A DNA stretch of 64,000 nt from an uncultured virus (IMG/VR IMGVR_UViG_3300044701_004307) (Duplodnaviria; Heunggongvirae; Uroviricota; Caudoviricetes): the IMG/VR virus record IMGVR_UViG_3300044701_004307. One strand, given 5' to 3'. Below the pieces are notes generated by a model, which saw only the letters and a program-made list of their open reading frames with translations, made no database searches and was not told the DNA's origin. Shown piece by piece: positions 34,368 to 56,509 of the stretch. The position numbers and the translations under genes are program-made. Positions within the stretch are counted from its first letter, which is position 1; each line of letters begins with the position of its first letter.

Positions 34368-34425
34368 AAAATAAATATCAGTACGGTGTCGTACTCTAGC
34401 ATTTACTGCGCGATAGTTTACCACT

Positions 34426-35262: not shown

Positions 35263-36339
35263 TCAACAATTCAGTTCGTACCAACCCTTGCGGTGCAGCC
35301 CATTGATTTGACGAAAGATCTTGTCGTAACGACGTCCGCAGGCCTCCAGGGACCATTTGGCGCGAGCGATATCTGCAATCACACGGCGGTCCAGCTCGCC
35401 CACCGCATGGATGCTGTCGATCCAGTCCTGCAGGGTGTGGCAGCGGTAGCCGCTGACACCCTCGACGACGGTTTCGGTCATGGCGCCGTAATCCACGGCC
35501 ACCACCGGTGTGCCGCACAGCATGGCTTCCACCGCCATGCCGCAGAAGGGCTCGGTGAAGACGGTGGGCGCCAGCAGGGCCCGAGCGTTGCGCAGGAACT
35601 CGGAACGCGCCTTGCCTGCGATGGGGCCTCGGTACTCAATGTTGGGATGCGCCCAGGGTGATGGATCGCCTTGACCATGCAGTACAATCGGCCACGGGCT
35701 GTGGTCGGCAATCGCCTTGATGGTGTCGATGCCCTTGAGCGGGGTGATGCGGCCTAGAAACGCCAAGTACTGCCCCGGCTCGTAGCTGGGCTCCCAGTCG
35801 TCGAGGTCGTAGTAGTTGGGGACGACCCATTCGTAGTTTTTGCCATTGCGGCCTTCCTTGCCCTGGTGGTAGTGCATCCAGGCGTAGGACTCAAAGATGC
35901 GGAAGCTATCCGGCATCAACGTGGGGTAACCGATGCCGGTTTCAACATGCTGATGGCGAGGAAACTCAGCCATGAGCTGCTGGTGCGCGTGGCCGAACGG
36001 GTGGCAGACGATGTCCTGCGGCTGGAGTCGTTCCCGCAACGCAGGGATTAGGCGTGACTCAAAGAGTTGATGGCCGGTGCTGCCAAGAGTAGCGTCATTG
36101 CCATGAAAGTCGGTTTCGCTGCGGCTATAGAGCGCTCCAAATTCAGCGGCGCCGAGCATCATCACATGCTCGTCAGCACTCGACTCAGAGCCCTCGTTGC
36201 TATATTCGATGACGGTGTAGCCCTGCGTCCGCATCATGTGCGGAAAACGGAGGGCCTTACCAGTGAACGCGCAATGGCTGTAAGCCTGAGTGTGCTGCGT
36301 GTGGAAGATGCCGACGAGATGCAGGTGAGGTTTGGTCAT
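35263..36339 (-). CDS. GT-B (GT4-like) glycosyltransferase
   Basis: FLGRI...KG and EPFCGMAVEAMLCGTPVVA (E-x7-E motif). Confidence 0.9.
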   Translation of the reverse strand: MTKPHLHLVGIFHTQHTQAYSHCAFTGKALRFPHMMRTQGYTVIEYSNEGSESSADEHVMMLGAAEFGALYSRSETDFHGNDATLGSTGHQLFESRLIPALRERLQPQDIVCHPFGHAHQQLMAEFPRHQHVETGIGYPTLMPDSFRIFESYAWMHYHQGKEGRNGKNYEWVVPNYYDLDDWEPSYEPGQYLAFLGRITPLKGIDTIKAIADHSPWPIVLHGQGDPSPWAHPNIEYRGPIAGKARSEFLRNARALLAPTVFTEPFCGMAVEAMLCGTPVVAVDYGAMTETVVEGVSGYRCHTLQDWIDSIHAVGELDRRVIADIARAKWSLEACGRRYDKIFRQINGLHRKGWYELNC

Positions 36340-36399: not shown

Positions 36400-38451
36400 T
36401 CATGCCGATGCAAACATGGCAAACATGTCGCCCTTATTTAAGAGCGGAGCCGAAAAATAGACATTGTCATTGTTGCCGCCGTCAATCGAGTTTGCGCCAA
36501 CATAGAACTTGCCACCACTAGATTCGCCAGTGTCTTTAACGCTTAAATAGTCGATTCCAGTCGCAACGTTGGTAAGAGAAAAATAGCGGCGAGTACCGGC
36601 TATATTGCTGTCAACTGTTACAACATTGCCGGCTGTACCCGTAACAGACCAGGTACCAATCGCAGGCTGTGAAACACTGGAAAATCTGATAGTATGAGCC
36701 ACTGTTTTAGTGGAGGCAATTTCTGTAAAAGAGGCAACATTGACAATGCTTAAAACAGATGTACCAGTGGCTCCGCCAATCGTTAGCTTATTGTAAGAAA
36801 GACCAATACCCGTAAATGTACGGGCATTAGTTGAAGTATTTGAAAGCAATATGTTCGCCGTGTCCTTATTCAGAGTAGGGGGAATTGAAGTTCCGGGATT
36901 CCACACGGTTCCCGTTCCGCTTAGTGTCCACAACCCAGACCCCATAGTAATGGTACGGTTATTAGTGGTAGACGAAGTAAAACTTGTACATGTAAGGTTA
37001 AAATTATTTGCATCAAATGTTCCCCTGTTCAAGCTAATAGAGCTGCTTGAAAGAAGAGAGTCAGCAAGCCTAAAGGTGCCACCCACTGGTTCCACTGTAA
37101 TAGGAAAAGGAATTGTTTTCCCAGCAGTAGAGAAATCCATTATTACGTCTCTACCTAGAAAGGTTTGAGTAAGGGAACTGCCAGGAGTGACGCCGGCACC
37201 TAGCTTATGGTAGCCATGCCAGAAAGCACTGGAACTGTAGCTCAATGTAATCCCTGTGGTTCGATCTGAGCAATCCAGGGAACCTATGTTGTAAATTGCC
37301 AGAGAAAGCGTAGTCGTCAAAGCCGTGTCATTATTGATGACAGCAGTATCCTGGGCAAGGGGAAAGTTAAGGTCCGAGCCATTCCCGCCAGAGCCCAATG
37401 CCCAACTAGCAACACCAGCCCACGAGCCATTAATGCCAACACGGTAAACAGTTTTCGCCGCAGGGAAGGTGATTCCACTGTTGCCGCCGCAGTCCCCGGC
37501 GCGAGCAGGAGTGGCACCCGCCGCCGCACCGGCCAATGTGATATCACGGAAATCGGAATTGTCAGCAGAAATAGCGGCAGCAGTTATGGTGCGTGCAGTT
37601 GCAGGGGTGTTAGATCGAACAAAAGTACGCCTCAAGGGATTTGCGCCGGCACAGGTAAATGTACCGGTGACAATTGGGCTACCGCTGATGGCAAGCTGAG
37701 CCATTCCATTGGTTGTTGGCGCACCGAGTGTAAGATTGTTAAAGGTGCTAGAACCAGTAAGAGTTCGAGTTCCTGCTACACCCGAAGTAAATGCAACATT
37801 ATTAAAAGTTAAGTTACCAGCATCAAAGCCACCAACATTGCTTGCTATGTTAATCTGTGATGTCCCAGCATTAAAAGTAAGGTTAGTTGTAGTACCAAAA
37901 GAGATGTCAAAAGAAGTACCTCCGCCGACTGTTATTGTTGACGAACCAAGGGAAACAGTTCGTACATTGGAATTACTTGAATCAAAAATGCCAGCAGCAA
38001 CACTGAAATTAGCTGTATTAAAATTACCCTGAGTAATTAATAAACTCCTGGAAGATAAGTTAATCGCGTCCCCAAGAGTAACCGCAATTCCATTACCATT
38101 TATATTTAAATTGCTGAATGTTTTTCCTGCTGTTGTGACTGTTCCCGTGGCAGTTATCGTCATAGTCCCGGTATGGCTATAGGTCATACCAGCGGATAGC
38201 GTTACGCTGCCAGCCACCGAGATCGCTGCTGCACCAGTAACTGTTCCCGCGAAACCAGTACAGTTAATACTTTTGGCTCCCGTATTGCCTGTCGCAATCG
38301 TTACCGTACCAGTTGAGCTGGCGTCAAAAAATACATCGTCGGCAGTGGTGGGTACGGTTTCACCGCCAGTACCGTTTGACGTAGCAGCCCACTTCGTGCC
38401 TGCCGTGCCATCCCAAGAGGCAGTACCACCAACCCAATACCTATTAGCCAC
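36400..38451 (-). CDS. large beta-rich tail/adhesin protein
   Basis: MANRYWVGG..WD...W N-terminus; internally duplicated Thr/Ser/Gly-rich beta repeats. Confidence 0.75.
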   Translation of the reverse strand: MANRYWVGGTASWDGTAGTKWAATSNGTGGETVPTTADDVFFDASSTGTVTIATGNTGAKSINCTGFAGTVTGAAAISVAGSVTLSAGMTYSHTGTMTITATGTVTTAGKTFSNLNINGNGIAVTLGDAINLSSRSLLITQGNFNTANFSVAAGIFDSSNSNVRTVSLGSSTITVGGGTSFDISFGTTTNLTFNAGTSQINIASNVGGFDAGNLTFNNVAFTSGVAGTRTLTGSSTFNNLTLGAPTTNGMAQLAISGSPIVTGTFTCAGANPLRRTFVRSNTPATARTITAAAISADNSDFRDITLAGAAAGATPARAGDCGGNSGITFPAAKTVYRVGINGSWAGVASWALGSGGNGSDLNFPLAQDTAVINNDTALTTTLSLAIYNIGSLDCSDRTTGITLSYSSSAFWHGYHKLGAGVTPGSSLTQTFLGRDVIMDFSTAGKTIPFPITVEPVGGTFRLADSLLSSSSISLNRGTFDANNFNLTCTSFTSSTTNNRTITMGSGLWTLSGTGTVWNPGTSIPPTLNKDTANILLSNTSTNARTFTGIGLSYNKLTIGGATGTSVLSIVNVASFTEIASTKTVAHTIRFSSVSQPAIGTWSVTGTAGNVVTVDSNIAGTRRYFSLTNVATGIDYLSVKDTGESSGGKFYVGANSIDGGNNDNVYFSAPLLNKGDMFAMFASA

Positions 38452-38454
38452 GAA

Positions 38455-38697
38455 TCAAGCCTCTACTGGTTTCAGGACGGTCTGTCCATCTAGCTCAACT
38501 TTTTCATAGATTACGCCGTCAATCTCAAAGGTACTGGACTCTGGTACTGGCGGGTTTTCTACTGCATCAAGCCAGTTATCGAGACGCTCCTGCTTCAACG
38601 CATTGATTTCATCCTCGTCCAATGTATGGTCATCATCGAGATAAAGGGCGTCTCGAAATACGCCATATTTAGTTGTAAACTCAAAGATGATCTGCAT
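38455..38697 (-). CDS. small fibre-associated protein
   Basis: MQIIFEF...G.FRDAL.L; lies between fibre genes. Confidence 0.6.
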   Translation of the reverse strand: MQIIFEFTTKYGVFRDALYLDDDHTLDEDEINALKQERLDNWLDAVENPPVPESSTFEIDGVIYEKVELDGQTVLKPVEA

Positions 38698-38705
38698 GGC
38701 TGATG

Positions 38706-39191
38706 CTAGGCCTGAGTAACTGTAGCAATAGCATCCCAAAAAAGGTCGGCGCCATTATAAATACAGCCTACATATGTGGTCTTACTGAGCACAGTAGTGG
38801 TCGGGAGGATAATACCAATGGCACGAAAACCTGTCGACGAGGTAGTCCAGGTGATACCGCGAGCGCTGCCATTATCTTTGATACGAATCAACAGCTTCTG
38901 TCCGTTGGTTGGCGTGCCGCTGGGGGCTGCGAATGTGATTGCGTTTGTCAATCCTTCCGCTATATAGATGTCGGTGGTATCAGCATTGGGTGTCAGCGTT
39001 CCACTGGTACCACTGGCCGCCACTACTCTCGACAGTGCCACTGGACCAGTAGCGCCAATAGGGCCAGTGGCGCCAACCGGAGCGACCAAAGCCTTAATTT
39101 GCCAGCCCGACCCATTCCAGATCCAAATGCGCCCTTCGAAGCTATACTCTTCGTTGAGCGTTGGAGAAGTGGGAAAATCAATTATTGGCAT
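38706..39191 (-). CDS. short fibre with the shared N-terminal FP..P/FEGR.W.WNG module
   Basis: Module, short G-X-Y run, then a C-terminal beta domain ending WDAIA. Confidence 0.75.
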   Translation of the reverse strand: MPIIDFPTSPTLNEEYSFEGRIWIWNGSGWQIKALVAPVGATGPIGATGPVALSRVVAASGTSGTLTPNADTTDIYIAEGLTNAITFAAPSGTPTNGQKLLIRIKDNGSARGITWTTSSTGFRAIGIILPTTTVLSKTTYVGCIYNGADLFWDAIATVTQA

Positions 39192-39303
39192 AGATCAAGC
39201 CAGGGAAGTCCAGAAGCGATGCCTGCTTAGGCATTGGGATCCGATTGGCCCCATAGTCTTCCTGCCGGTTTTTCTTAAGTTTACCGTGAGGACTCAAAAG
39301 CAT

Positions 39304-39627
39304 TTACTGGTATGAACCCCAGGGCAGACCTTGTGCCGTGCTGGGAGCATGTTGCTCATCTAATTGAGCCTGAAGTGCTGCTTCGATTTCGGCTACTTTT
39401 TCAGCGCCACCGAGTTTTTCTTGTACCCAACCAACAATCTGCGCCTCGGTCAAGTCGGAGAAGGGCACCATGTCTTCGGGATCAGCGGGCTCGAGACCAA
39501 TGGAGCCATACGCTCCAGCGGAGTACGCTTCGTCTTTGGCATCAACGGTGTAGTGGCAAGTCCGCACCATGCCGTCAGCAGTAGTGCGCTCCAGTTGGGC
39601 GATATGCCAGGTAAAGGTAGTAGCCAC
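39304..39627 (-). CDS. fibre-associated small protein
   Basis: MATTFTW.IA.LER...G.PW family typical downstream of fibre genes. Confidence 0.7.
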   Translation of the reverse strand: MATTFTWHIAQLERTTADGMVRTCHYTVDAKDEAYSAGAYGSIGLEPADPEDMVPFSDLTEAQIVGWVQEKLGGAEKVAEIEAALQAQLDEQHAPSTAQGLPWGSYQ

Positions 39628-39707
39628 CAGTCGTTACAATAGAATAGCAATAATCATCACAGTATGCCGACCAGATGCAGGCGGGGTTTCCTCATGTTTA
39701 GCAAGAG

Positions 39708-39986
39708 CTAAGGCAGTGCAGGCGTGGCCTCTGCTGGTGGCGCAGATGCAGCGACAAGTGCTTGGTACTCAGCGACCAGCTCAGGCGTCCATAATGCACC
39801 CGCTACTGCTTGCATCTCGGCGCACTCCTCGCTCATGTCGTCGCCGGGAACGCAAACATGGCGGTGATAAGTGCGACCCACTTCAATGCCGTCTTTTTCG
39901 ATAATGTCAGCACGGCGGCACTGCAGGATGGAGTAGGGCGGGATGATCTCGATCTTGTGTTCGTGGCGTTCGGTGAAGGTAGCCAT
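39708..39986 (-). CDS. fibre-associated small protein
   Basis: KIEI...LQ.R....I..DG.E..R.YHRH pattern. Confidence 0.7.
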   Translation of the reverse strand: MATFTERHEHKIEIIPPYSILQCRRADIIEKDGIEVGRTYHRHVCVPGDDMSEECAEMQAVAGALWTPELVAEYQALVAASAPPAEATPALP

Positions 39987-40044
39987 TAGGAATGCCCTCC
40001 AGGCATAACAGGTTTAGTGGCCATAGTTTTGAGCCGTTGCGGGC

Positions 40045-41556
40045 TTAGACCCTGTATGTAAAAGAAAATATTATAGTAGCAGTACCAGTAACGCCACTTG
40101 TTGTGAGCAAAGTGGTCGTACCATTTGCGCTATAAGTTGCGGCCGTATTACTAACACTAGTGTTAGTAGCATTGCCACTTGCGCTATTACCATTTACGGT
40201 AAATGGAAGATTGCTCGTAAGTGCGAAACTTGCAGCTACACTTATACTAGTGCTCCCAGAAAGAGTGCCTCTTACGTAAACAAGATTCCCTATTTTTGTA
40301 TATGTGCCCGCAGAACTGAAGCTGCCACTCACTGACAATCCTGCGCCTTGGCTTGGAGTCCATGTTCCTTCCTCGTAGTCATCCAGCGCATTGGCTGCGG
40401 CGGTGTCGCCGTTGAACTGGATGCCGCCCGTACTGGCGGCCATGCGTAGGTATTTGTCCGAAGTAATACGCAATGCTTCGGTCGGGGTGCCAGAGTTATC
40501 CGCACTAGTGCTAAATACCAAGCGACTGGGCATATCTCCAGCAGTGTTAATCGCGGTACCAGTCCCTGTGCCAGCACCTGTTGCCGTAAACGTTGTTCCT
40601 GGAGTACTGTTTGCCGCGCCAATTAGTGTAAAGTCCGTGGTCCCAGTTGTTAGGATACGGTAAGTCTGGCCAACTGTAAACGTGCCTGCTGTTTGACCCA
40701 AGGTGCCGTCTACTTCGCCCTCAATTTGCGCCCCAGCAATATAATTAGTTCCGTCAGAACCAGTGAAATAAATTATCCCCAAACCATCCCCTGCGAGCAC
40801 TGCCGACTGAGTCCCGATAGTCGCTGACCGAGATTTTGTAAAAAATACTCCCGGCGATGTTGCATTGGCGCTGAACCTGCTAGCACTTATGGAACTACTG
40901 CTGCCAGTATCTCCCATCACCTCAATACGCGGGAACGCCCCATTGTGCATTGTTTGTTCGGTGGTGAATCCAAACAAAAAACGTCCCTGTCCGTTAATTC
41001 TCAGACGTTCGCTTGTGACTGAGCTTGTTCCTTGTTCTAGCGTAAACTCGCCACCAGTTACTGAAAACTTGTAATCTGTTAGAGTATCCGCACCCCAGGT
41101 CGTATTAGTACCGCGAACAAATTCAATAGATGTAACCGGTGACGAGTCACTTCGCGCATGAATTCTAAATGATGCAGTAGAGCTGGCGGGCGCGATGTCT
41201 ACATTTGCTGTGGGCGAACTGGTTCCAATGCCAACTTTGCCGTCGCTCGTGGCACGGAGGCGCTCGCTGCCGCCCGTGGTGATCGCCACCTGGTTGGCGC
41301 CGGGGCTGTAGAGGCCTGTGTCGTCGTCACCTGTGAAGTACAGACTTGGGCCGGTTGCCGATCCTGCTGCCAGCGCATTCGGCCCAGCCGGGCCAGTGGC
41401 TCCAGTAGGACCGATGGGACCAGTGGGGCCAGTGGCACCAACTGGGGACAAGGGGGATTTGATCTCCCAGCCGGCACCGTTCCACAGCCAAGTTCGGCCC
41501 TCGAAGCTGTATTCGTCGTTTATTGCGGGAGTGGCTGGGAAGTCAATAAGAGGCAT
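40045..41556 (-). CDS. tail fibre protein
   Basis: Shared N-terminal module, collagen-like run, ERLRI fibre repeats, LDDYEEGTWTP C-terminal domain. Confidence 0.85.
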   Translation of the reverse strand: MPLIDFPATPAINDEYSFEGRTWLWNGAGWEIKSPLSPVGATGPTGPIGPTGATGPAGPNALAAGSATGPSLYFTGDDDTGLYSPGANQVAITTGGSERLRATSDGKVGIGTSSPTANVDIAPASSTASFRIHARSDSSPVTSIEFVRGTNTTWGADTLTDYKFSVTGGEFTLEQGTSSVTSERLRINGQGRFLFGFTTEQTMHNGAFPRIEVMGDTGSSSSISASRFSANATSPGVFFTKSRSATIGTQSAVLAGDGLGIIYFTGSDGTNYIAGAQIEGEVDGTLGQTAGTFTVGQTYRILTTGTTDFTLIGAANSTPGTTFTATGAGTGTGTAINTAGDMPSRLVFSTSADNSGTPTEALRITSDKYLRMAASTGGIQFNGDTAAANALDDYEEGTWTPSQGAGLSVSGSFSSAGTYTKIGNLVYVRGTLSGSTSISVAASFALTSNLPFTVNGNSASGNATNTSVSNTAATYSANGTTTLLTTSGVTGTATIIFSFTYRV

Positions 41557-41558
41557 GA

Positions 41559-41741
41559 TCAGTCTTCAGGTGGGGCGACGAATGTGCCGTCGGGTTGCTT
41601 GAGCCAGCCTCCTTGGACCTCGGCCGGGCAGGGCTCGAATTGGGCGACGATTTCGGCGGTAAAGGATTCGTCGATGGTGAAGCCTTCGAGAGGAGTGAAG
41701 ACTTCAAGGACGATCGAGTCAGAAACGCGTGCGTATTTCAT
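41559..41741 (-). CDS. small adhesin-associated protein
   Basis: MKYARV...GW...DG.F..P; follows a Gly-rich gene. Confidence 0.65.
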   Translation of the reverse strand: MKYARVSDSIVLEVFTPLEGFTIDESFTAEIVAQFEPCPAEVQGGWLKQPDGTFVAPPED

Positions 41742-41744
41742 GGG

Positions 41745-42542
41745 TTAGTACTCCACAATGACGAGGCCGGAGCCGGTGGTATTGCTAGCTGCTCCTGCTC
41801 CCACAGTCACAGAAACTGTCGAACCCGGTGTGAGGCCGGTTACGGTTTTCATGGAAAAACCACCGCCGCCGCCACCATTGGAGCCACCGCCACCGGGAAA
41901 TCCACCGGCCGCACCAGCAGTACCCCCGCCGCCTCCGCCTCCGTTCACGCCGGCACTGCCTGGCCATACGTTGGTATTACCAGCGCCGGCACCTCCGCTT
42001 CCTGTGCCGATCAGGTCGATTGAGTCCACACCAAAGACGAATCCCGATGCAGGTGTCGTGGCTACGGATGCACTTAGTGCTGGCTGCCCCGGTGTTCCGG
42101 TAATCCCGGATCCACCTCTGCCCCCAGGAGTAGAGGCTGCACCGCTACTGCCGCCACCTCCGCTTGCTGCGCTCCCGCCACTAGTAGACCCCCCGTTGCC
42201 GAGAAGACTTGCGGCGCCCCCGCTGCCTGCGCTGGTATTTGATCCTTGGCCGCCAGTAAAATTAACATCGCCACCGGATCCCGAGCCACCAGAAATGGGT
42301 GCTACAAACGTTGTACCGAGTCCTCCCGTGGCGGAACAGTGCGCTCCAAATGACGATGTCCCGCCAGTGTTGGATGCTCCGCCGCCGCCCCAGACGCGGG
42401 CGCGGACTGTTGTGACGCCTGCGGGGACCGTAAACGTTCCAGAGTTATAGAAAAACTCGATGACGCCCCTGCCGAATGGGCCCGACAGTGGATACAGAGA
42501 CTGGGGAGTCCTTACGGTTGCTTCAGTGATGTTGCGTCCCAT
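41745..42542 (-). CDS. glycine-rich adhesin-like protein
   Basis: SGTFTVPAGV, polyglycine runs, G.G.VIVEY end. Confidence 0.8.
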   Translation of the reverse strand: MGRNITEATVRTPQSLYPLSGPFGRGVIEFFYNSGTFTVPAGVTTVRARVWGGGGASNTGGTSSFGAHCSATGGLGTTFVAPISGGSGSGGDVNFTGGQGSNTSAGSGGAASLLGNGGSTSGGSAASGGGGSSGAASTPGGRGGSGITGTPGQPALSASVATTPASGFVFGVDSIDLIGTGSGGAGAGNTNVWPGSAGVNGGGGGGGTAGAAGGFPGGGGSNGGGGGGFSMKTVTGLTPGSTVSVTVGAGAASNTTGSGLVIVEY

Positions 42543-42544
42543 GG

Positions 42545-42856
42545 TCAGACCTCGTACCCGTAAACGTTGACGGAAGCGGTTGCGGCGCTGACATAGGCCA
42601 CAACCTGTTTGGTGGCTTGGGCCACGATGCCTGTGCGCTCCAGCACTCCGTTGGGTGGGATGGACGCATCATATTCAATCCACTCGGAATCACCAGGGGT
42701 CCCAGTGGCAGCCACCGCCAGTCGAGCAGTGATGGCGCTTGTGCCGCGATTGCAGACGTTGACACTGAAGGTGGCCGTCGTTGCCGATGGCACCGTGTAA
42801 ACGCTGGTGTTGGTCGTTGCTGTTGGGCTGGATTGCCCCAAGATGCCGGTTGCCAT
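42545..42856 (-). CDS. small beta-sandwich virion protein
   Basis: VYTVP.....T..V..CN; similar to 57739..58089. Confidence 0.7.
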   Translation of the reverse strand: MATGILGQSSPTATTNTSVYTVPSATTATFSVNVCNRGTSAITARLAVAATGTPGDSEWIEYDASIPPNGVLERTGIVAQATKQVVAYVSAATASVNVYGYEV

Positions 42857-42871
42857 GACAAGCTTTAAAGG

Positions 42872-43123
42872 TTAAAAGGAACTACAGAAATAAACAAACG
42901 CTGGAGTAGCGTAAGTCCTATCTAGTTTCGCTGGAGTGACTGCAGCGTTGTCGATGGTCCATACTGCACCAGAGCTAGACACCGTGATATCCCCTTTGTC
43001 GCCATCGGGAAAAACCAGTACAATTTTACCCTCCCAGCCAGTTCCATTCCAAATCCAAGTACGACCTTCGAAGGTGTACTCATCATTGAGGGCTGGTGAA
43101 GCTGGGAAATTGATAATGGCCAC
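42872..43123 (-). CDS. minimal fibre/adaptor with the shared N-terminal module
   Basis: FPASP...YTFEGRTWIWNGTGW followed by DGDKGDITVS. Confidence 0.75.
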   Translation of the reverse strand: MAIINFPASPALNDEYTFEGRTWIWNGTGWEGKIVLVFPDGDKGDITVSSSGAVWTIDNAAVTPAKLDRTYATPAFVYFCSSF

Positions 43124-43179
43124 GGCTTAGGTTACCCGAAAGAGTCAATAAATACTCAGTGTTGTCGCAAGTGTCCCGA

Positions 43180-43452
43180 CTATGCTTCCGACTCTGGGAC
43201 CGGGTCAAGTTCGGGCGCTACGAATGCGTCAGTTTGGTTATCATAAGTGTCGCCAATGCCGGCGTACTTGCCCCGGAAGTTGGCGTTGTAGCTGGTCTGG
43301 ATCCAGCGGCTTGCTGGGCCAAACAGCGACTGGCAGAACGCGATGCCTACGGCTTCGGATTCTTGGCCGCTGGCATCTAGGCAGTCAGGGTTGCCAACAA
43401 CAATGACGCGGGTGACGACGTTGCTTTGATCGAGTTCAGCGAAGTGTGCCAT
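43180..43452 (-). CDS. small adhesin-associated protein
   Basis: MAHFAELD..NVV.RVIVV...W.QTSYN..FR..YAGIG family. Confidence 0.75.
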   Translation of the reverse strand: MAHFAELDQSNVVTRVIVVGNPDCLDASGQESEAVGIAFCQSLFGPASRWIQTSYNANFRGKYAGIGDTYDNQTDAFVAPELDPVPESEA

Positions 43453-43460
43453 GGTTGACC

Positions 43461-44297
43461 TCAGAGTGTAATGGTGCCGGAGCCGGTGAAGCGGTACACG
43501 CGGTAACCGGAGCGCGTGGGTTCTGTATAGGTGCCTGTAATCGTGGCGGGAACAGGGTATGTATCGGGATATGCAATAATTACGACGCCAGAGCCTCCCG
43601 AGCCGCCGCTGGCTGCGCCCTGGAGGTTTGTCCCAGCCCCCCCGCCCCCTCTGCCGGTATTTGCTGTCCCCGACACTCCGCCGTTTGTTCCTGTCATTGC
43701 GCCGGCACCACCGGCTGCATAACTAACAGAAGATCCGGTGATTGTTGTCGTGTATCCCGCTCCGCCCACACCTGCAGTGTTGGCGCTGCCGTCGGCGCCA
43801 GCCGAAAGCGCACCACCGCCACCGCCAGAAGCGTTTGTATTATTGCCAGCCGTAAAAGCGGAACCACCTGAAAATGTCCCAGAGTAAGACATTTCGTTTA
43901 GTCCAGCAAACACAGTAGGCCCCCCCGCCCCGCCGGCAAAGCTTGGAGTGTTAGCGCTTTGGTGCCCCGCGCCACCGCCAGATCCACCAGCCGGCGGAGC
44001 AGGAGACCCTCCATTGGTGTTGGAAAATCCACCGTTGCCTCCCCCGCCTGCCGCAGTGATTCCAAATGAGCTCGAGCTTCCGCTTGAACTACTACCTCCG
44101 CCTCCCCCTACTGCAATTGTGTACGAAGTTCCTTTGTTTATCTTTCCAGGGGTGAACGCGATTACTTGGCCCCCGCCGCCTCCGCCTCCGCAAGTATTAG
44201 TTCCGGCGGTTTGACCGCCGCCGCCGCCGCCGCCAACAATCAGCAGTTCAACGGGAACGGTAGGCGGAGTGCCAAGAAACTGGGATAATGTAGACAT
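43461..44297 (-). CDS. glycine-rich adhesin-like protein
   Basis: VE.L.VGGGGGGG, GGSGVVII.YP, F..SGT end. Confidence 0.8.
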   Translation of the reverse strand: MSTLSQFLGTPPTVPVELLIVGGGGGGGQTAGTNTCGGGGGGGQVIAFTPGKINKGTSYTIAVGGGGGSSSSGSSSSFGITAAGGGGNGGFSNTNGGSPAPPAGGSGGGAGHQSANTPSFAGGAGGPTVFAGLNEMSYSGTFSGGSAFTAGNNTNASGGGGGALSAGADGSANTAGVGGAGYTTTITGSSVSYAAGGAGAMTGTNGGVSGTANTGRGGGGAGTNLQGAASGGSGGSGVVIIAYPDTYPVPATITGTYTEPTRSGYRVYRFTGSGTITL

Positions 44298-45328
44298 TAG
44301 ATAATCCTCCAGCCACGGGTGGCATCAACGTAGTATAGGGTGACGGTAATTTCCGCCGTGTCGATTGTCATATTTTCCGCAAGCGACATGATGTTCGAGC
44401 CGTTACGGGCAATAACAGTATCAGTAAAAGCTCCGGCAATTGTAATCGATACTTCCGCCCCTGCTGATGGGCTGGCCGGAAGGGTGATGGTCAATCCAGC
44501 AGCGGTGACAGAACATCGCTCCTTATCGACCAGTGTCTTATCAATTGCCGTCGTGGTGATTGTATAGGAAGGAAATGGACCGGTCGCTCCGGTAATGCCG
44601 ATAGGCCCAGTTGGCCCAGTCGGACCGGTCATCGCTGCTGCTGCATAGGCGCGAGGGCCAAGTTCAACCCACTGGCTAGTATCAGCGTCAATGACATAGG
44701 TATAAAGGATTCCAGCTTCTTCGTCAAACCATTCATCCCCTTCTAATGGAGAAGCCGGAGGACTTAGGCTTGACAAGAAAGCCGCAGCGCCAGTCGCGCC
44801 GACGGGGCCTATTGGTCCAGTAGCTCCGGTGGGGCCTAGATAACTGTAGTTTTTAGGACCTAATTCAACCCATTGACTTGTGCTAGCGTCCGAAATATAA
44901 GTATACAAAACTCCGGCATCATCGTCAAACCATTCGTCGCCCTCGGCGGGACTGGATGGTGGTGTGCTGGTAGATGCAAAAGCAGAGACTCCGGTTGCGC
45001 CCACCGGACCAGTGGCGCCAATAAAATTATAATTTTGTGGCCCAATTTCGACCCATTGGCTGCTATTCGCGTCAGTATAATAAGTATATAAAATTCCGGC
45101 TTCTTCGTCAAACCATTCGTCCCCTTCAACAGCGCTGATTGGCGGGGTCGTCGTAGAGCTAAATGCTCCAGCCCCTGCCGGTCCAGAGGGACCCGTGGGG
45201 CCAGTAGCGCCAGCGGGAGCGACAAATGCTTTAACCTCCCAGCCAGTGCCATTCCACAACCAGGTACGGCCCTCGAAGGTGTACTCCTGATTTAGAGTTG
45301 GAGAAGCGGGAAGATCAATACTTGGCAT
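44297..45328 (-). CDS. putative fibre hub: shared N-terminal module plus three EGDEWFD repeats
   Basis: Three P..P.EGDEWFD..AG.LYTY...SQWVE.GP repeats separated by G-X-Y linkers; ends YVDATRGW. Confidence 0.8.
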   Translation of the reverse strand: MPSIDLPASPTLNQEYTFEGRTWLWNGTGWEVKAFVAPAGATGPTGPSGPAGAGAFSSTTTPPISAVEGDEWFDEEAGILYTYYTDANSSQWVEIGPQNYNFIGATGPVGATGVSAFASTSTPPSSPAEGDEWFDDDAGVLYTYISDASTSQWVELGPKNYSYLGPTGATGPIGPVGATGAAAFLSSLSPPASPLEGDEWFDEEAGILYTYVIDADTSQWVELGPRAYAAAAMTGPTGPTGPIGITGATGPFPSYTITTTAIDKTLVDKERCSVTAAGLTITLPASPSAGAEVSITIAGAFTDTVIARNGSNIMSLAENMTIDTAEITVTLYYVDATRGWRII

Positions 45329-45333
45329 GATGG

Positions 45334-46221
45334 TTACAGGTCGTTAGTGTTGACGTTGGGGAAAGCCCTGTTGGGTCCCCAAATGATGCGGACTGCCCCA
45401 CCGCCGCCGTTGGCCTGTTCGGCAGTAGTGTTATCAGCCCCGCATCCGCCGCCACCATAAAGCCCAGGTCTAGATAGGTTACCTGTGCTATAAACGTTGC
45501 CTGGAGCAGTTGCGCTTGCTTGAGAGGCATCGCCGCCCCCAGATCCACCAAAGCCGCCAGCGCCATCATTGGCCGATCCCGCTCCACCATTGCCGCTGGT
45601 TCCCTCGCCAAGTAAGCCGACGCCTCCGCCGGAACCAGCGGAGTCTCCGGTTCCGCCGGTTCCACCCCCGCCTCCACCTCCGCCGGTACCAGCAAGACCG
45701 GGCCGCGCAGTGCCGCCAGTAGAAGCACCCCCGGCGCCACCAGCGCCGCTATAGCCACCGGCACCGCCGCCGCCGCCAGCATCAGAAATAGACCCTCCCC
45801 TGGTGCCGCCGCTGCCCCCGTTTCCGCCGCCATCACCAACAAAAGTTCCACCCGTTCCCGCCGTGTCGCTTGAGCAGGCACCACCTCCGCCGCCATTACC
45901 TGCAACAGTGGAACTGTTAATGAAAAGACTTTGACCGCCCGATCCAGCGGTTCCCGTAGTAGCCCTGGTCCCGCCTGCTCCAACGGTAACGGTATAAGAC
46001 TGGCCAGGAACTACTGCGATATTGTTTTTCCAACCAAGACCGCCACCACCGCCTCCCGAGGAGCCGTTTCCGTTTGCTGCAGGTCCGCCACCGCCTCCAA
46101 CGCAAACCACGCAAACGCTGTATACACCAGCGGGAGCAACCCAGCTAGTCGTACCCGCCGTAGTAAATTGGGCCTGCCCAACTGGCTGCTCTTGAAAGAA
46201 TGGGACCTGTTGAATCGTCAT
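45334..46221 (-). CDS. glycine-rich adhesin-like protein
   Basis: W.APAGV.SV.VVCVGGGGG, GAVRIIWG..R.FP end. Confidence 0.8.
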   Translation of the reverse strand: MTIQQVPFFQEQPVGQAQFTTAGTTSWVAPAGVYSVCVVCVGGGGGPAANGNGSSGGGGGGLGWKNNIAVVPGQSYTVTVGAGGTRATTGTAGSGGQSLFINSSTVAGNGGGGGACSSDTAGTGGTFVGDGGGNGGSGGTRGGSISDAGGGGGAGGYSGAGGAGGASTGGTARPGLAGTGGGGGGGGTGGTGDSAGSGGGVGLLGEGTSGNGGAGSANDGAGGFGGSGGGDASQASATAPGNVYSTGNLSRPGLYGGGGCGADNTTAEQANGGGGAVRIIWGPNRAFPNVNTNDL

Positions 46222-47576
46222 GTTAACCCCGCTCCAGATACAACGTATTCATTGGAAGCAACGCAGAGTATATTTGCTAGACCTCTTTGGGCCAAAGTAC
46301 GATTACCGGTACTAGCAGTGCCAGCGAATCGTAGCGTAACATTACTAGTAGTAATTGTTATATTTGCCGCTGAGTCATTATAAATAACGCACATATCTCC
46401 AACCGAAAAACCTGTGCTGGAGTTTATTGTGACGCCTGTTGTTGTGTCAATGTATTTACCAGCATCGGCAGCAACTATTGTGGTATTAAGGCTTTGAGGA
46501 ATACCAAGAAGAGCGGGGCCTGTAGCGCCGGTCGCCCCGGCACCAGTGGCTCCGGTTGCGCCGATAATGCCGGTCGCCCCGATGGGGCCTTCAACCCCAG
46601 TGGCCCCGCTGACACCAATAACGCCAGTGGCACCCGAGGCTCCCACGGCGCCAGTCGCCCCAGAAACACCAATAACGCCGGTGGCGCCCTGGTCGCCAGT
46701 CCGCACGAAATCGACGACAAGCGCATCGCTATTTGCGGGCAATGTCCCCGAAACGTAAGTAACTGTAATCTTGTAATAACCTGTGGCAGGCGTGACTGCC
46801 GTGACTTGAAAAATATTAGTAACTGTTGATGTGCTAAGAGCGCTTTGAATCGTTATGTATCCCTTGGAGACATTAGTGGAATCATCCCAAGTCGCAAACC
46901 AAGAAGTTTGATTTGTACTGCCTACGTCAACATCATCGATGAATATCTGTGTTACAGATCCAATCGTTCCACTGTTATACTGAAGAATACCGGTACCTGG
47001 ATCTGAATCCGCAACCGCAGTGCTGAAATTATAAGGAACTCCACCGCGAACCCCGGTGGCACCAGAAACGCCGATTACCCCCGTCGCACCACTAACGCCG
47101 ATAACTCCGGTGGCGCCCGACACGCCAACAGGGCCGGTGGCGCCTGATACGCCAATAACGCCTGTGGCGCCGACAGGGCCTTCAACTCCGGTGGCGCCAG
47201 AAATGCCAATGACGCCCGTGGCCCCAACGGGCCCGGCGGGTCCCGTGGCGCCCTGCGGACCATAGATTTTAGGGCCTAACTCAATCCACTGACTAGTGTT
47301 ACCATCGGCAACGTAAGTGTACAGAATGCCCGCGTCTTCGTCGAACCATTCGTCACCCTCGACAGGGCTTACCGGTGGGTCTATGCTGGAAGTGAATCCA
47401 GTCCCACTGCCACTGCCTCCGGCACCAATCTCAACGATAGATTCCGTCCCGTTATTCTTTTTAAGAAATAACTTTCCGTCAAAAGTATTTACAGCTAATT
47501 CGCCAAGCGCAATCTGTCCCGTTGTTGGAACCGCTGACGGAACAGCACTACGCCTAATTTTAATCGTATTTGCCAT
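46218..47576 (-). CDS. collagen-like tail fibre protein
   Basis: MANTIKIRR...GELA N-terminal domain, one EGDEWFD repeat, long G-X-Y runs, SGAGLT end. Confidence 0.85.
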   Translation of the reverse strand: MANTIKIRRSAVPSAVPTTGQIALGELAVNTFDGKLFLKKNNGTESIVEIGAGGSGSGTGFTSSIDPPVSPVEGDEWFDEDAGILYTYVADGNTSQWIELGPKIYGPQGATGPAGPVGATGVIGISGATGVEGPVGATGVIGVSGATGPVGVSGATGVIGVSGATGVIGVSGATGVRGGVPYNFSTAVADSDPGTGILQYNSGTIGSVTQIFIDDVDVGSTNQTSWFATWDDSTNVSKGYITIQSALSTSTVTNIFQVTAVTPATGYYKITVTYVSGTLPANSDALVVDFVRTGDQGATGVIGVSGATGAVGASGATGVIGVSGATGVEGPIGATGIIGATGATGAGATGATGPALLGIPQSLNTTIVAADAGKYIDTTTGVTINSSTGFSVGDMCVIYNDSAANITITTSNVTLRFAGTASTGNRTLAQRGLANILCVASNEYVVSGAGLT

Positions 47577-47638
47577 TTGGGCTCCCGTTGATTGCTATAA
47601 AGCAGGGTTAAACTCTGTATATACAGAGCGTATTGACG

Positions 47639-50377
47639 TCAGAAGCTTCCGCCGTCAATGTCGAAACCTGACGTGGTTCCGTCCTCTAAGAAGGTTACCA
47701 AATCACTTAGCGCAACTTGCACCATTGTGCCGGCATCATTGATGACCATCCGATCAGCTAGGGCCAAAGTGGTGGCAGTCGCGGTGGTCGAGCCATCAAT
47801 AACTGCAGCTTCAGTTGACGTCAGAGCCGCGAGTGAGGTTGCCGTGCCGCTTGCCATCCCGGCAAGGGTTGCCAGTTCCGCATCGTAGCCCTGGACGTCC
47901 GTGCCGATCACCAGGCCGAGGCTGGTACGCGCACCGGCGGCGGAGGTGGCGTTAGTACCCCCGTTGGCCAGGCCCAGAGTGCCAGCCAGGGTAACTGCCC
48001 CAGTCGTACCGGTACTAGGGGTCAGGCCTGTCGTACCAGCCGAGAATGACGTGACGCCAGCATTGGCGTTGGTGAGGTTGTAGCTGCTATACCACTGTGT
48101 CGTGCTGGAAGCATTGAATTCCATCACGCCGCTGACGGCTAGCTGGATGCTTGCGTTCGTAGAAAGAGCATCAATGGCTGCCCCAGTGGCGGGGAAGATA
48201 TTGATAGGATTAGCGCCTTTGTTGACAACAACGATGCGACGACCTTGTGTCGCCGTCGGCAATGTAACACCAGAAGGGTTAGCCGCTGCCGTCGTAATGA
48301 TGTTATAGTCGCTCGTCAGAGCACCCTGGCCCTGAACATTGGTGCCAGCAGTAACGTTATTGCTCGTGCTGAACGTTTCTCCACTAAGTGCTGGACGAGT
48401 CAGCGATGGATCAGTGCTGAATACCACCACTCCAGTACCGGTCTCGTCGCTGATGACGCCGGCAAGCTGGGAGGAGGATGTAGCGGCAAACTGCGCAAGA
48501 GTGCCGTCGGTATAAGCGACCGTACCACCGGCACCAAAAGCAACGGAAGACGAATCCGTGCCAGTGAAGGTCAGCGTATTCGACGCCGTAAGCGTCTTTC
48601 CATCAGCGATAGTCAGCGTAGAACCAGTCGCTGGAGCTGTAATGGTGACCTTGTTGACAGAGGTTGCGCTAGCCGCCCCCAAGGTCGGAGTGACAAGTGT
48701 CGGCGAGGTCGCGAACACCAAAGAGCCGGAGCCCGTTTCGTCAGTAATCGCTGCCGCCAGGTTTGCGCTTGTGTCACTGATGTCATAACCCGCGAAAGTC
48801 GTGGGCGTGGTACCGGCCGTGATTCGCCCGTATGTGTCAACGGTGACACTGCGGTAGGTACCTGGCGTGCCGATAATGCCGCTCGTCAGGTTGATCGAAT
48901 CAGCGCTAATCGTCAGCGAGCCGCCGCCAGTTGAGGCGACATCCAGCGTATTGCCACTCTTCGTGAGGCCCGCGCCGGCCGTAATCTGCCCAGCACCAGA
49001 GAACTGAGTAAACGAAAGAGCATCGCCAGTAAACGCCGTATAGCCAGCGCCCGACTTACCCATCCTGATAGGAGGAGGAGCAGTTTGAATGAATCCGTTG
49101 CTACCGTTAGTGGTACCACCAGAAACAAATACATAGTCACCGGAGGTGATCTCACCAGTTGGGCCATTGTCGAAGTCAGTTGTCCTTGTCCAGACGCCGT
49201 TTGCGCCAGAGCCGACAGTGGTGACGTTGTATACGCCGTTGTAAGCAGCGGTCGTGTGATCCTTGACGAGGATGCGCTGGCCAACGGTTAGAGTAGCGCC
49301 AGAATCAACACTATTGGGGCATCCGCTTAGTGTTGCGCCAACTCCAGGGTCGCCAGTAACGCCAATACTCAGGCCAGTACCATTGGTTAGGGTGGCGTTG
49401 GCGCCGCCGAAGGCAGCGGATAGTTTGACTTGATTAAGCGCTGGAACAGTAGTTACATAGTAGGTAGTATTGGCAGTCAGTCCAGTTCCAGTTACGGTAT
49501 CACCAGTGCGGACCTGAGAGTTGATATTTAGCCCGTGATTAGCACCAAACGTAATTGTGTCAGTGCCCGTAATTGTGGTAATCGTTAAAAGAGTACCGCC
49601 GGACGCATATGCATATGAAACGGCAGCATTGGTCGCGAAATCTGCGGCGCCGTGAACATTCAGACTCTGGGCAATCGAGTCGGCGTACTGCTTGTTGACG
49701 CCGTCGGTCGGGAGTTGCGGTGCGGCAACGTCAAGAAGTCGTTGACTATTGAGGCTGACAGGAGCCGTAGGCGCCGCCATCTGATCCAGACGGCTGGTGC
49801 GAACCTGCGTGTCGAAGTCAGAGATTTTTGCCGCAGTCAGCGAAGGAATGTCATTTGCAACTAACGTACGAAATGTTGGACTGCCAGTCGTCCCGTCAGG
49901 AGCACCAAAAATAGTGTTAGCAGTCTGCGACGCCAGAGTGCCAGTAAGAGTACCGCTGCCAGTGACAGGCGAGTTGCTTACGGTAAAAATACTGGGCAGG
50001 CTGAGGCCAACGCTGGTGACGCTACCAACGCCATAGCCAAGAGATTTTACAAATGCAGTAGTCGCCAGACGCGTCGAGTTGTCACCGGTTGCCTGCGTGA
50101 CACCGACGGCACTATTGGCGCCTGTCCCGGTAAGGCTTACGACTCCACTTAATGTTTTATCACCGGTGATCGTCTGGGTTGTATTAAGCGTCGTAAAAGA
50201 GCCAGGCCCTGCGATCGAAAGAATGGAGCTAGCTGATCCGCCTGCTCCGCCGGTGCCAACACCATAATATAGAGTAGAGTCTTGCTCGTTAAACGCTAAT
50301 TCCGCATTCGCAAGCGAAGAAGGCGCACCGGCAGCACCACCAGCAAGACGCCTTTTGATGCGTACGGTATTGGCCAT
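47639..50377 (-). CDS. long tail fibre protein
   Basis: 912 aa, Thr/Gly/Ser-rich; MANTVRIKRR...AELA N-terminus; ends IDGGSF. Confidence 0.85.
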   Translation of the reverse strand: MANTVRIKRRLAGGAAGAPSSLANAELAFNEQDSTLYYGVGTGGAGGSASSILSIAGPGSFTTLNTTQTITGDKTLSGVVSLTGTGANSAVGVTQATGDNSTRLATTAFVKSLGYGVGSVTSVGLSLPSIFTVSNSPVTGSGTLTGTLASQTANTIFGAPDGTTGSPTFRTLVANDIPSLTAAKISDFDTQVRTSRLDQMAAPTAPVSLNSQRLLDVAAPQLPTDGVNKQYADSIAQSLNVHGAADFATNAAVSYAYASGGTLLTITTITGTDTITFGANHGLNINSQVRTGDTVTGTGLTANTTYYVTTVPALNQVKLSAAFGGANATLTNGTGLSIGVTGDPGVGATLSGCPNSVDSGATLTVGQRILVKDHTTAAYNGVYNVTTVGSGANGVWTRTTDFDNGPTGEITSGDYVFVSGGTTNGSNGFIQTAPPPIRMGKSGAGYTAFTGDALSFTQFSGAGQITAGAGLTKSGNTLDVASTGGGSLTISADSINLTSGIIGTPGTYRSVTVDTYGRITAGTTPTTFAGYDISDTSANLAAAITDETGSGSLVFATSPTLVTPTLGAASATSVNKVTITAPATGSTLTIADGKTLTASNTLTFTGTDSSSVAFGAGGTVAYTDGTLAQFAATSSSQLAGVISDETGTGVVVFSTDPSLTRPALSGETFSTSNNVTAGTNVQGQGALTSDYNIITTAAANPSGVTLPTATQGRRIVVVNKGANPINIFPATGAAIDALSTNASIQLAVSGVMEFNASSTTQWYSSYNLTNANAGVTSFSAGTTGLTPSTGTTGAVTLAGTLGLANGGTNATSAAGARTSLGLVIGTDVQGYDAELATLAGMASGTATSLAALTSTEAAVIDGSTTATATTLALADRMVINDAGTMVQVALSDLVTFLEDGTTSGFDIDGGSF

Positions 50378-50419
50378 TTAGGGGGAGATCGCTTATCTAT
50401 TTTTCCTAATTAATAAAAC

Positions 50420-50905
50420 CTAAAAATTACCGCCATCCGTAAGTGTTATAATCGTATTCTGATCATTCGCAGTAAACTTTCCAGTAGACTCGTTCCATAC
50501 CAGAACACTTTTGTCAACTTTTAAGCCAACATTTACATCAGTGAGGTCAGATAGAGCCGTTGCGCCGGTCGGTCCCATCGGTCCGACGGCCCCGGTGGCG
50601 CCAGTAATCCCCACTCCAGTGGCCCCCTGCTCCCCGGTGGCCCCGGTTGGCCCCATGGGCCCGATGACGCCAGTTGCGCCAGTGATTCCTACCCCCGTGG
50701 CGCCCTGCCCCCCGGTAACCCCAGTTGCCCCCTGGACGCCAGTCGGCCCCTGGATCCCGATGGGCCCCTGCGGGCCAACTACCGCCGCATCTACTATTTC
50801 AACGACTGGTTCGAGCTCGACATTAACAACTACAACGTCTCCCTCTTCGACGCTTACGGTTGCTATGCTATCCGTTATTTGAATAACAGGTTCAGGCATC
50901 GGCAT
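50420..50905 (-). CDS. collagen-like fibre connector
   Basis: GPQGP/GATG triplet run, LSDLTDV repeat, ends LTDGGNF. Confidence 0.8.
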
Positions 50906-52907: not shown

Positions 52908-52954
52908 TAGCTCAGTTCGATCCGCTAGTTTTCCTGCTTATTATAGCAAGGCAT

Positions 52955-52978
52955 AAAAAACCCCGCACTAGGCGGGGT
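52955..52978 (-). terminator. rho-independent terminator after major capsid gene
   Basis: accccgc/gcggggt stem plus U6. Confidence 0.8.
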
Positions 52979-53001
52979 CGGATAATTTCGTACTAACGAA
53001 A

Positions 53002-53913: not shown

Positions 53914-54036
53914 GAAAATTACCTTTGATAAAACAGGCAAAGATGGGTGATTTGCAGATCCCGCGTCTCGCGGCTAACCGGCTCGACACCCTCTTACCCT
54001 GTCGTCTCGACTGAGGTATTCAGGTATCTTCAACCT

Positions 54037-54046
54037 TTAGGTTACC
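54037..54046 (-). promoter_or_regulatory. putative phage late-promoter element GGTAACCTAA (representative of about 20 copies)
   Basis: The same GG-N-A-N-N-C-T motif lies upstream of portal, scaffold, fibre, lysin and other genes. Confidence 0.7.
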
Positions 54047-54084
54047 GAGTAGTAGCCGCTTCTAGACTGAACGAGTAAATTTAT

Positions 54085-54110
54085 AAAAAAAAGAGGGGAT
54101 AAACCCCTCC
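54085..54110 (-). terminator. rho-independent terminator after scaffold gene
   Basis: gagggg/cccctc stem with an 8-U tract. Confidence 0.7.
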
Positions 54111-54130
54111 CTTCTTTTTGTCACAAAAGT

Positions 54131-54865: not shown

Positions 54866-54928
54866 GGTAAGCCTGGGGCGTCACGCCCCTGAATGTGCGT
54901 GGTAGTATGCCAATCAAAAGAGGTGTGG

Positions 54929-55051: not shown

Positions 55052-55074
55052 TTTAATTAGAATGAAGGTCAGGC

Positions 55075-55761: not shown

Positions 55762-55763
55762 TG

Positions 55764-56015: not shown

Positions 56016-56017
56016 TT

Positions 56018-56470: not shown

Positions 56471-56509
56471 GGAGATTAATCGGATGCGTTAGTTTGCCAG
56501 GGAGTCACG

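Follow-up and report, generated by a model that had tools for sequence, protein, structure and literature searches.

We analysed a 64,000-nucleotide stretch of DNA (the window) from an uncultured member of the Caudoviricetes, IMG/VR record IMGVR_UViG_3300044701_004307, in which a cluster of collagen-like fibre genes follows directly after the scaffold and major capsid genes. Past the capsid gene, the minus strand holds nineteen open reading frames (ORFs) in a row (52907 to 36400), and the fibre genes among them carry two pairs of recurring protein modules. A preliminary description of this DNA, made from its letters alone, had named the fibre ORFs, and each is present on the minus strand with the position and size it gave. 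The portal, large terminase (TerL), scaffold, major capsid protein and tape-measure-like (TMP-like) genes all lie on the minus strand as well. For the major capsid protein, identity is 67% with Synechococcus siphovirus S-CBS2 and 49% with P-SS2; judged by sequence, the source is an S-CBS2-like Synechococcus siphovirus. Megablast with the whole cluster found no near-identical DNA in the phage collection, and the same genes are present on one IMG/VR contig piece (L001).

In the first pair of modules, a DGGxF tail at the end of one protein is matched by an N terminus beginning with MANT in the next. In the second, a module of about 35 amino acids (aa), which we call the socket, lies inside two proteins, and a module that we call the plug forms the start of four. 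A six-frame pattern scan of all 64 kb found exactly four GDxW[FWY] modules (one in the 452-aa protein and three in the 343-aa protein), four N termini of the form G[RK]xWxW[NDT]G (starts 45328, 43123, 41556 and 39191), two DGGxF-stop ends and two MANT starts. None of these occurs elsewhere in the window, which bears out the counts in the preliminary description. The copies in the window score E 1e-25 to 1e-31 with hidden Markov models (HMMs) built from them. The N terminus shared by the four plug proteins is 33 aa long, with 67-73% pairwise identity. As had been proposed, conservation acts at the protein level: the proportion of synonymous differences (pS) is high and that of nonsynonymous differences (pN) low, at pS 0.51-1.0 and pN 0.13-0.15 among the four plugs and pS 0.71-1.05 and pN 0.18-0.29 among the four sockets. 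Since synonymous sites are saturated between copies, the copies are old, not products of recent gene conversion, and are kept by selection on the protein. The features are collected in Table 1.

Table 1. Features of the fibre gene cluster, with positions in the window. pLDDT, predicted local distance difference test score.
Feature	Position	Strand	Match or support
LtfC/p132-like putative collar protein, 110 aa	50892..51224	-	PF23926 LtfC, E 8.8e-4
161-aa collagen-like protein, proposed first chain member; tail DGGNF at 50423-50437, ends LTDGGNF	50420..50905	-	PF01391, E 2.3e-8
912-aa protein, proposed second chain member; N terminus MANTVRIKRR, tail DGGSF at 47642-47656 (ends IDGGSF)	47639..50377	-	
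452-aa protein, proposed third chain member; N terminus MANTIKIRRS, collagen runs	46218..47576	-	
452-aa protein, gp37-like MANT domain	47427-47576	-	pLDDT 92-93
452-aa protein, socket module	47256-47396	-	pLDDT 94-96
452-aa protein, C-terminal XD1/gp9-like sandwich	46221-46511	-	fold comparison of model
295-aa Gly_rich_2 protein; start overlaps end of 452-aa gene	45334..46221	-	PF21722, E 1.1e-7
343-aa protein; plug, three sockets, short collagen runs between	44297..45328	-	
343-aa protein, plug	45230-45328	-	
343-aa protein, three sockets	45023-45163, 44840-44980, 44639-44779	-	
343-aa protein, XD1-like C-terminal domain	44300-44575	-	fold comparison of model
278-aa Gly_rich_2 protein; start overlaps stop of 343-aa gene	43461..44297	-	PF21722, E 9.2e-13
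90-aa protein; precedes 83-aa gene	43180-43452	-	phrog_7759
83-aa plug-bearing, adaptor-sized protein; GTG start at 43123, plug 43025-43123	42872..43123	-	
103-aa protein; after 83-aa gene	42545-42856	-	
265-aa Gly-rich protein; after 83- and 103-aa genes	41745-42542	-	
503-aa plug-bearing fibre; plug 41458-41556	40045..41556	-	phrog_18345, phrog_9942 (tail fiber)
92-aa protein; after 503-aa fibre gene	39708-39986	-	phrog_6228
107-aa DUF7936 protein; after 503-aa fibre and 92-aa genes	39304-39627	-	
161-aa plug-bearing fibre; plug 39093-39191	38706..39191	-	phrog_3030, phrog_3449
94-aa protein; after 161-aa plug-bearing fibre gene	38455-38739	-	
683-aa protein; after 94-aa gene	36400-38451	-	

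The first pair has a counterpart in the long tail fibre of phage T4. BLASTP aligns the N terminus of the 452-aa protein with that of T4 gp37 (34% identity over 47 aa, E 5e-8), and its first 60 residues match the N termini of PHROGs 19966, 35830 and 1699, labelled 'long tail fiber protein distal subunit'. It is through the MANT domain of this protein that the homology to gp37 is established; the 912-aa variant has no direct match to T4. We then considered every MANT-type N terminus in the loci fetched, 13 non-redundant cases (nine of the 452 type and four of the 912 type). The ORF just upstream ends in xGGx[F/Y] in 12 of them, against a background of 22 ORFs ending in [DN]GG.[FY] among all 5,891 ORFs of at least 60 aa in the same loci. 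The 452-type cases include S-CBS2, where gp052 is preceded by gp051, ending in EIDGGTF, and T4 itself, where gp36, just upstream of gp37, ends in DFGYY. All four non-redundant proteins with a 912-type N terminus follow a small gene ending in [DN]GGNF and themselves end in DGGx[F/Y].

Other comparisons of this pair gave less. The upstream tails themselves align with T4 gp36 at a BLASTP E value of 0.63 only, and no 'Rosetta stone' fusion of a DGGxF tail to a MANT domain was found in the long single-chain fibres of loci L002, L003, L005 and L007. Pfam Mtd_N (PF18454) gave no hmmscan match at E values up to 10 with either MANT N terminus of the window; it is matched by the N termini of a 798-aa protein in L007 (E 2e-16) and a 187-aa protein in L011 (E 2.9e-14), and in two relatives an Mtd_N protein is preceded by a gene ending in VDGGGA or DLGGVV. 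Residues 1-58 of the 452-aa protein resemble the HylP N terminus in fold at Z 2.9 only. Sequence searches of solved structures found none for the T4 gp37 N terminus or for the 912-, 343- or 295-aa protein, and matched the 452-aa protein to collagens only. In the accessible text of PMC3004832, trimeric T4 gp36 binds the N-terminal region of gp37. By analogy, the first pair would be an end-to-end joint of the gp36/gp37 type, with homology and gene order computed and the physical joint carried over from T4.

Upstream of the first chain member lies the gene for the 110-aa LtfC/p132-like protein. It scores 20.2 bits on PF23926, under the 27-bit cut-off; 40 of the 44 members of its family match this model (best E 4.3e-7), and the family profile matches LtfC of phage DT57C (8hqz_Q, E 5.3e-4) and p132 of T5 (7qg9_R, E 0.029). 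By sequence, the 110-aa protein is a remote member of the LtfC/p132 family of beta sandwiches. In DT57C, LtfC is described as a collar at the tail tip to which the lateral fibres are fixed (PMC10713586); the 110-aa protein is likely the base that carries the fibre chain. Because of the gp37 homology of the MANT domain, the upstream tails and the LtfC-like collar gene, a linear chain from the collar through the 161- and 912-aa proteins to the 452-aa protein is well supported at the level of sequence, with physical contacts that we infer. The chain set out in the preliminary description thus stands.

In the preliminary description, plug and socket are two matching partners. Profile comparisons suggest that they are kin. 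Aligned with hhalign as modules alone, 38 plugs and 33 sockets match at E 5.5e-4 over 29 columns, and at E 4.7e-5 with the flanks of the first rows added. The N-terminal part of phrog_3449 matches both the plugs and the 452-aa socket. AlphaFold2 models of the plug and of each socket give the same three-strand meander (pLDDT 80-96), with Gly-X-Y linkers below pLDDT 50. Intermediates also exist: internal modules with a plug-type WNGxGW ending occur in L044 and L055, and P0243, a 1249-aa protein with a lipoprotein-type signal peptide, has 13 tandem modules intermediate between plug and socket, with short Gly-X-Y runs between them. The signal peptide suggests that P0243 is bacterial; if it is, the module is not confined to phage fibres. 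We take plug and socket to be sequence variants of a single beta module, about 35 aa long and three-stranded, as judged from profiles and models, not lock and key by origin.

This module family is large. The plug profile matches 9,333 representative proteins at E <= 0.001; among the best 150 of these, 118 have one or two matching stretches, the best one at the N terminus, and are 32-936 aa long, and 31 are multi-repeat proteins. Pfam and NCBIfam have no model that matches either module, and in a limited set of literature queries we found no description of the two module types. The two forms often share a chain: 26 of the 33 plug-bearing homologues of the 343-aa protein also hold a socket, usually about 20 residues past the plug. 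Sockets follow directly after the MANT domain in 30 of 120 MANT proteins, and L067 has ten internal modules and one plug.

The best small-domain fold match of the socket, in two independent models, is the trimerisation domain of collagen XV/XVIII, at Z 4.0-4.2 and a root mean square deviation (rmsd) of 2.8-3.5 Å over 48-50 residues, a match too weak to place the socket in that family. In the multiplexin collagens XV and XVIII, this domain nucleates trimer formation. From their modelled fold, their position and this weak likeness, the sockets most likely act like ordinary shaft modules, as knots of trimerisation or registration. The socket profile also matches tectonin-2 propeller blades weakly (E 0.0029), and the plug profile matched solved structures at chance level only. 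A six-bladed ring of three socket and three plug blades was considered and rejected, because two triple helices cannot both exit along one axis. The sockets at 47256-47396 and 44639-45163 (minus strand) carry a dense acidic patch, with a net charge of -8 to -9 per chain and about -25 per trimer, which might bind seawater cations.

We next asked how plugs and sockets are distributed. A census covered 93 non-redundant loci, of which 37 are uncut, meaning that no module comes within 3 kb of a locus end. Both forms are present in 33 of the 37; one has a plug only, and three have internal modules only. A separate search used a narrower socket alignment, the broad one being too diverse, and yielded 68 non-redundant loci; a gene starting with a plug is present in 45 of the 50 that have at least 3 kb downstream. 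Eight loci contain a protein with a socket at its very end and, immediately after it, a gene that starts with a plug; a 33-aa plug-only ORF separates the two in four of these. Such single-plug ORFs of 32-33 aa (L035:7073-7171, likewise in L036-L038; P0283, P0305, P0326 and P0358) recur across independent contigs between a socket-ending gene and a second plug gene, where they may serve as a cap, a spacer or a stacking disc. No plug or socket was found at E < 1e-3 in the stretches of S-CBS2 and S-CRES1 that were scanned.

Four kinds of virion anchor occur in the fibres that are encoded upstream of plug genes, namely LtfA-like, Mtd_N, MANT and the T7 tail-fibre domain. These fibres differ also in their C-terminal domains and in the gene that precedes the plug gene, and the socket is the sole recognisable module they share. 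This argues, from gene neighbourhoods and by analogy, for plug proteins as secondary fibres carried by a primary fibre that bears modules. That the plug and socket forms are NEVERTHELESS linked is supported, at the sequence level, by their co-occurrence and gene order.

Both the 343- and the 452-aa protein end in a fold known from branched fibres. In the models, residues 252-343 of the 343-aa protein superimpose on XD1 of CBA120 TSP4 (residues 77-175) at Z 14.8 and rmsd 1.3 Å over 90 residues, with 21% identity, and on T4 gp9 and gp10 at Z 10.7 and 10.4. Residues 356-451 of the 452-aa protein reach Z 9.4 with the Pa223 spike and 7.7 with TSP4 XD1 and T4 gp9. The preliminary description had seen no T4 gp10-like docking domain here. 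This has to be amended, in that an XD1/gp9/gp10-D1-type sandwich ends both proteins; no XD2/XD3 jellyroll was recognised in either model. In CBA120, XD1 is called a spacer, unable to bind a trimeric partner, and XD2 and XD3 dock the partners, and the XD1 fold binds glycans in StcE and CpaA, all according to the accessible portion of PMC8825819.

In other marine phages, at least six different N-terminal anchors precede the XD1-like domain of the 343-aa protein, whose last residues are GWRII. Its homologues P0005-P0081, at 70-80% identity, stand behind T7 tail-fibre (PF03906), MANT, Mtd_N and plug N termini and at least two others, which on sequence grounds is a clear case of tip-domain shuffling among marine phages. 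Since this XD1-like tip occurs behind so many anchors, the 343-aa protein, previously cast as a hub, would itself be a fibre with its own tip, and its XD1-like domain behaves, as far as sequences tell, as an exchangeable receptor-binding tip. The 452- and 343-aa genes are each followed directly by a Gly_rich_2 gene whose start overlaps their end. Elsewhere among phages, MANT-plus-socket or plug fibres can end in a fused Gly_rich_2 domain (P0140 and P0149, for example), and a 425-aa protein of L005 is, as judged by eye, a fusion of the Gly_rich_2 type. The 295-aa member matches phrog_4474 and phrog_863 ('tail fiber assembly') and has the same gene order in L025. The Gly_rich_2 proteins could be either tips or chaperones, and the five adhesin tips counted in the preliminary description are best regarded as putative.

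These data suggest a host-recognition cassette of about 15 kb, made of separately encoded fibre pieces with two kinds of reusable end modules. An LtfC-like collar would be followed by three proteins joined end to end, the xGGx[F/Y] tail of each upstream protein meeting the gp37-like N-terminal beta domain of the next. The result would be one long primary fibre of 161, 912 and 452 aa that ends in an XD1/gp9-like sandwich. Internal modules between short collagen-like runs would be trimerisation or registration knots. The same module at the N terminus would be the conserved anchor of four secondary fibres (343, 83, 503 and 161 aa) and most likely attaches them to a module-bearing fibre, not one plug per socket. 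Each fibre protein would have its own distal domain or its own partner genes after it, Gly-rich or small and conserved, and the virion probably displays several different receptor-binding ends. We give this explanation as a whole, with its chain, module kit and several tips, a probability of about 0.55.

Several points weigh against it. The homology of plug and socket depends on moderate profile scores (probability 30-68%), their likeness in fold on monomer models of what must be trimers, and the resemblance to collagen XV/XVIII, over a unit of 50 residues, has a weak Z of about 4. Chance has to account for the exact 4:4 match of plugs and sockets in the window, and also for the joint presence here of three additional plug proteins and, in the 343-aa protein, two additional sockets, compared with one socket in P0005, a 211-aa homologue, and one plug and one socket in the relative L005. 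Loci extended at most 10 kb to each side of a match and modules were called by HMM threshold, which means that some counts may be off. Finally, the cluster adjoins the capsid gene and has matches to 'head decoration' PHROGs and a capsid spike, which leaves its attachment to the tail putative.

The plug may obey a stricter rule than the one proposed here. If every internal socket docked exactly one plug protein, as the preliminary description had it, the 452-aa socket would take the 343-aa hub and the hub would take the 83-, 503- and 161-aa branches. The four sockets and four plugs of the window agree with such a code, and so do the close relative L005, with one of each, the strong co-occurrence of the two forms, the eight loci in which a plug gene directly follows a terminal socket, and the standing of the socket as the only recognisable module common to the proteins upstream of plug genes. 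The counts across related loci do not. Plugs and modules are equal in number in only 1 of 13 uncut multi-copy loci, this window; the others have plugs and modules at 2:1 (four loci), 3:4 (two), 3:2, 1:2, 3:6, 3:7 and 1:4 (two), for a rank correlation of 0.40 (p 0.17). A 97%-complete record has three plugs and seven internal modules, and a search of the whole record found no plug-profile match outside the locus. Moreover, the 26 plug proteins with a socket of their own would be free to self-polymerise. A trimeric plug cannot stack coaxially on an internal socket, because collagen enters and leaves it on its three-fold axis, and plugs (net charge -2 to -3 per chain) are acidic like sockets, so charge does not favour contact. 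As a general rule, the one-plug-per-socket code is not supported by these comparisons; we regard strict pairing as unlikely, and the 4:4 count is probably a coincidence. Of the hub-and-branch proposal, the link between plug and socket survives; the pairing rule, with its unequal counts and related modules, is not supported as a general one, and some docking at internal sockets may occur in this phage.

Alternatively, the four plug proteins may dock away from the sockets, on the free distal face of the XD1-like domains of the 452- and 343-aa proteins, on the Gly-rich or small proteins whose genes lie in between, or on a tail or collar site that they share or compete for, with mixed occupancy. 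The sandwiches at the ends of the 452- and 343-aa proteins have a fold that is also part of the branched CBA120 complexes and of the baseplate of T4; the window shows the order XD1-ending fibre, Gly-rich gene, plug gene two times, and L025 shows it once; and the loci in which plugs outnumber modules, such as L133 (4:1) and L085 and L111 (3:1), as well as the single uncut locus with a plug and no module, point the same way. We find this doubtful all the same, given that XD1 of CBA120 is the spacer (PMC8825819), that the XD1-like domain of the 343-aa protein is shuffled as a receptor-binding tip would be, and that plug proteins are found in phages with T7-tail, MANT, Mtd_N or LtfA-like anchors on their primary fibres, which makes a common site in the virion core unlikely. 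A wider and still tentative idea is that the module is a general stackable connector of collagen-like phage fibres, a knot within a chain and, at the start of a separately encoded protein, the piece that docks on terminal and also internal copies in a module-bearing fibre. If this were true, cyanophages of podo-, sipho- and myo-type would share one kit from which to put together branched fibres with combinations of several adhesins, and the acidic sockets might need bridging cations. It is also conceivable that part or all of the cassette serves the head or neck. Besides the position of the cluster directly after the scaffold and major capsid genes, the 912-aa protein matches PHROGs labelled 'head decoration' and 'virion structural protein', the matching gene of S-CBS2, gp051, bears the annotation 'head decoration protein', the C-terminal domains are similar in fold to the capsid spike of Pa223 (Z 9.3-9.4), and the plug weakly resembles a segment of a PhiKZ capsid protein (Z 3.6). 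Such labels are annotations, not tests, and most PHROG matches are to tail fibre families; with an LtfC/p132-like gene at the head of the chain, as in the tail-tip collars of T5 and DT57C, and a MANT domain homologous to long-tail-fibre gp37, we consider a head or neck system very improbable.

The favoured explanation, a chain with secondary fibres, would by analogy join the T4 chain joint with the anchor and conserved-peptide logic of known systems with multiple receptor-binding proteins (RBPs). Like the T4 distal long tail fibre, the cluster has a gp37-homologous N-terminal domain (in the 452-aa protein), a partner encoded immediately upstream with a short aromatic-terminated tail (DGGxF here, DFGYY in gp36), and putatively trimeric pieces placed end to end, as the accessible text describes for T4 (PMC3004832). 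Unlike T4, it uses the joint twice in series, its pieces are collagen-like, and no gp35-type knee protein was recognised in the cluster. The anchor-branch RBP complexes of G7C (gp66/gp63.1), CBA120 (TSP1-4) and Klebsiella phages KP32, K11 and KP34, which combine a T4gp10-like branching domain with a conserved N-terminal peptide, are similar in that consecutive genes encode several RBPs, a short N-terminal stretch is conserved among the secondary RBPs and the primary fibre has the virion anchor, as set out in the parts available of PMC6872550 and PMC13352976; an XD1-type domain is common to both as well. In Klebsiella phages, it is the conserved-peptide secondary RBPs with which the plug proteins compare (PMC6872550, same parts). 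The known complexes differ from ours in that the conserved N terminus here is a folded 33-aa beta module of the same family as the internal shaft modules, the shafts are collagen-like, and no XD2/XD3 jellyroll was recognised in the 343- and 452-aa models. In DT57C the lateral fibres are branched, LtfB being attached through LtfA, as stated in the available part of PMC10713586. Our cluster shares with T5 and DT57C an LtfC/p132-like gene directly upstream of the first fibre gene, but the LtfC match is remote (profile E 5e-4) and the fibre proteins are unrelated. The trimerisation domain of collagen XV/XVIII is, like our module, a beta-rich unit of about 50 residues beside a collagen triple helix; it has no sequence likeness to the module, which here is repeated inside the chain and also placed at its start. 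In T2 and S16, gp38 is a Gly-rich fibre-tip adhesin. The Gly-rich proteins here are likewise encoded directly after fibre genes, and differ in that the 295-aa one has no sequence match to any solved structure.

Fibres that mostly lack annotation set the host range of marine cyanophages. The cluster shows such fibres to be built from separately encoded pieces with a few reusable end modules, here a gp37-type joint domain and the very common beta module; in these proteins the beta module goes unrecognised by Pfam and NCBIfam. Recognising the modules would make fibre genes, assembly order and exchangeable tip domains readable from metagenomes, and the modules supply concrete fragment pairs for binding tests. 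A tempting counting rule, one plug per socket, is corrected.

Some smaller features of the cluster are worth recording. The collagen repeat PF01391 (cut-off 27.2 bits) scores 34.1 bits with the 161-aa protein at the head of the chain and 59.3 with the 452-aa protein; the 343-aa protein, whose Gly-X-Y runs are short, stays below the cut-off for that reason, at 21.9 bits. An NCBIfam search returned collagen-adhesin matches only, far under the cut-off. Plug proteins of 69-74 aa, comparable to the 83-aa protein, occur in L035 and L046. The small conserved proteins of 90, 92 and 107 aa (DUF7936) may act as chaperones or as connectors. Proteins that resemble the 90-aa one are encoded beside fibre genes in L011 and L059.

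The surroundings of the cluster are unusual for a siphovirus. From 51285 to 64000 (minus strand), the order starts with tape-measure-like and tail-tip genes, which are followed by scaffold and capsid genes and next by the fibre cluster, and the portal and terminase genes lie more than 30 kb beyond it. The order of capsid and then fibre genes is also found in S-CBS2. Directly after the cluster is a group-1 glycosyltransferase gene (35263-36339, minus strand), and about 1.9 kb downstream of the collagen-like fibres is a gene for a PKHD-type 2OG-Fe(II) oxygenase (33702-34424, minus strand). Judging from these neighbouring genes, the fibres could be hydroxylated or glycosylated. A homologue of the glycosyltransferase lies directly 3' of the fibre genes in L005 and L002 too.

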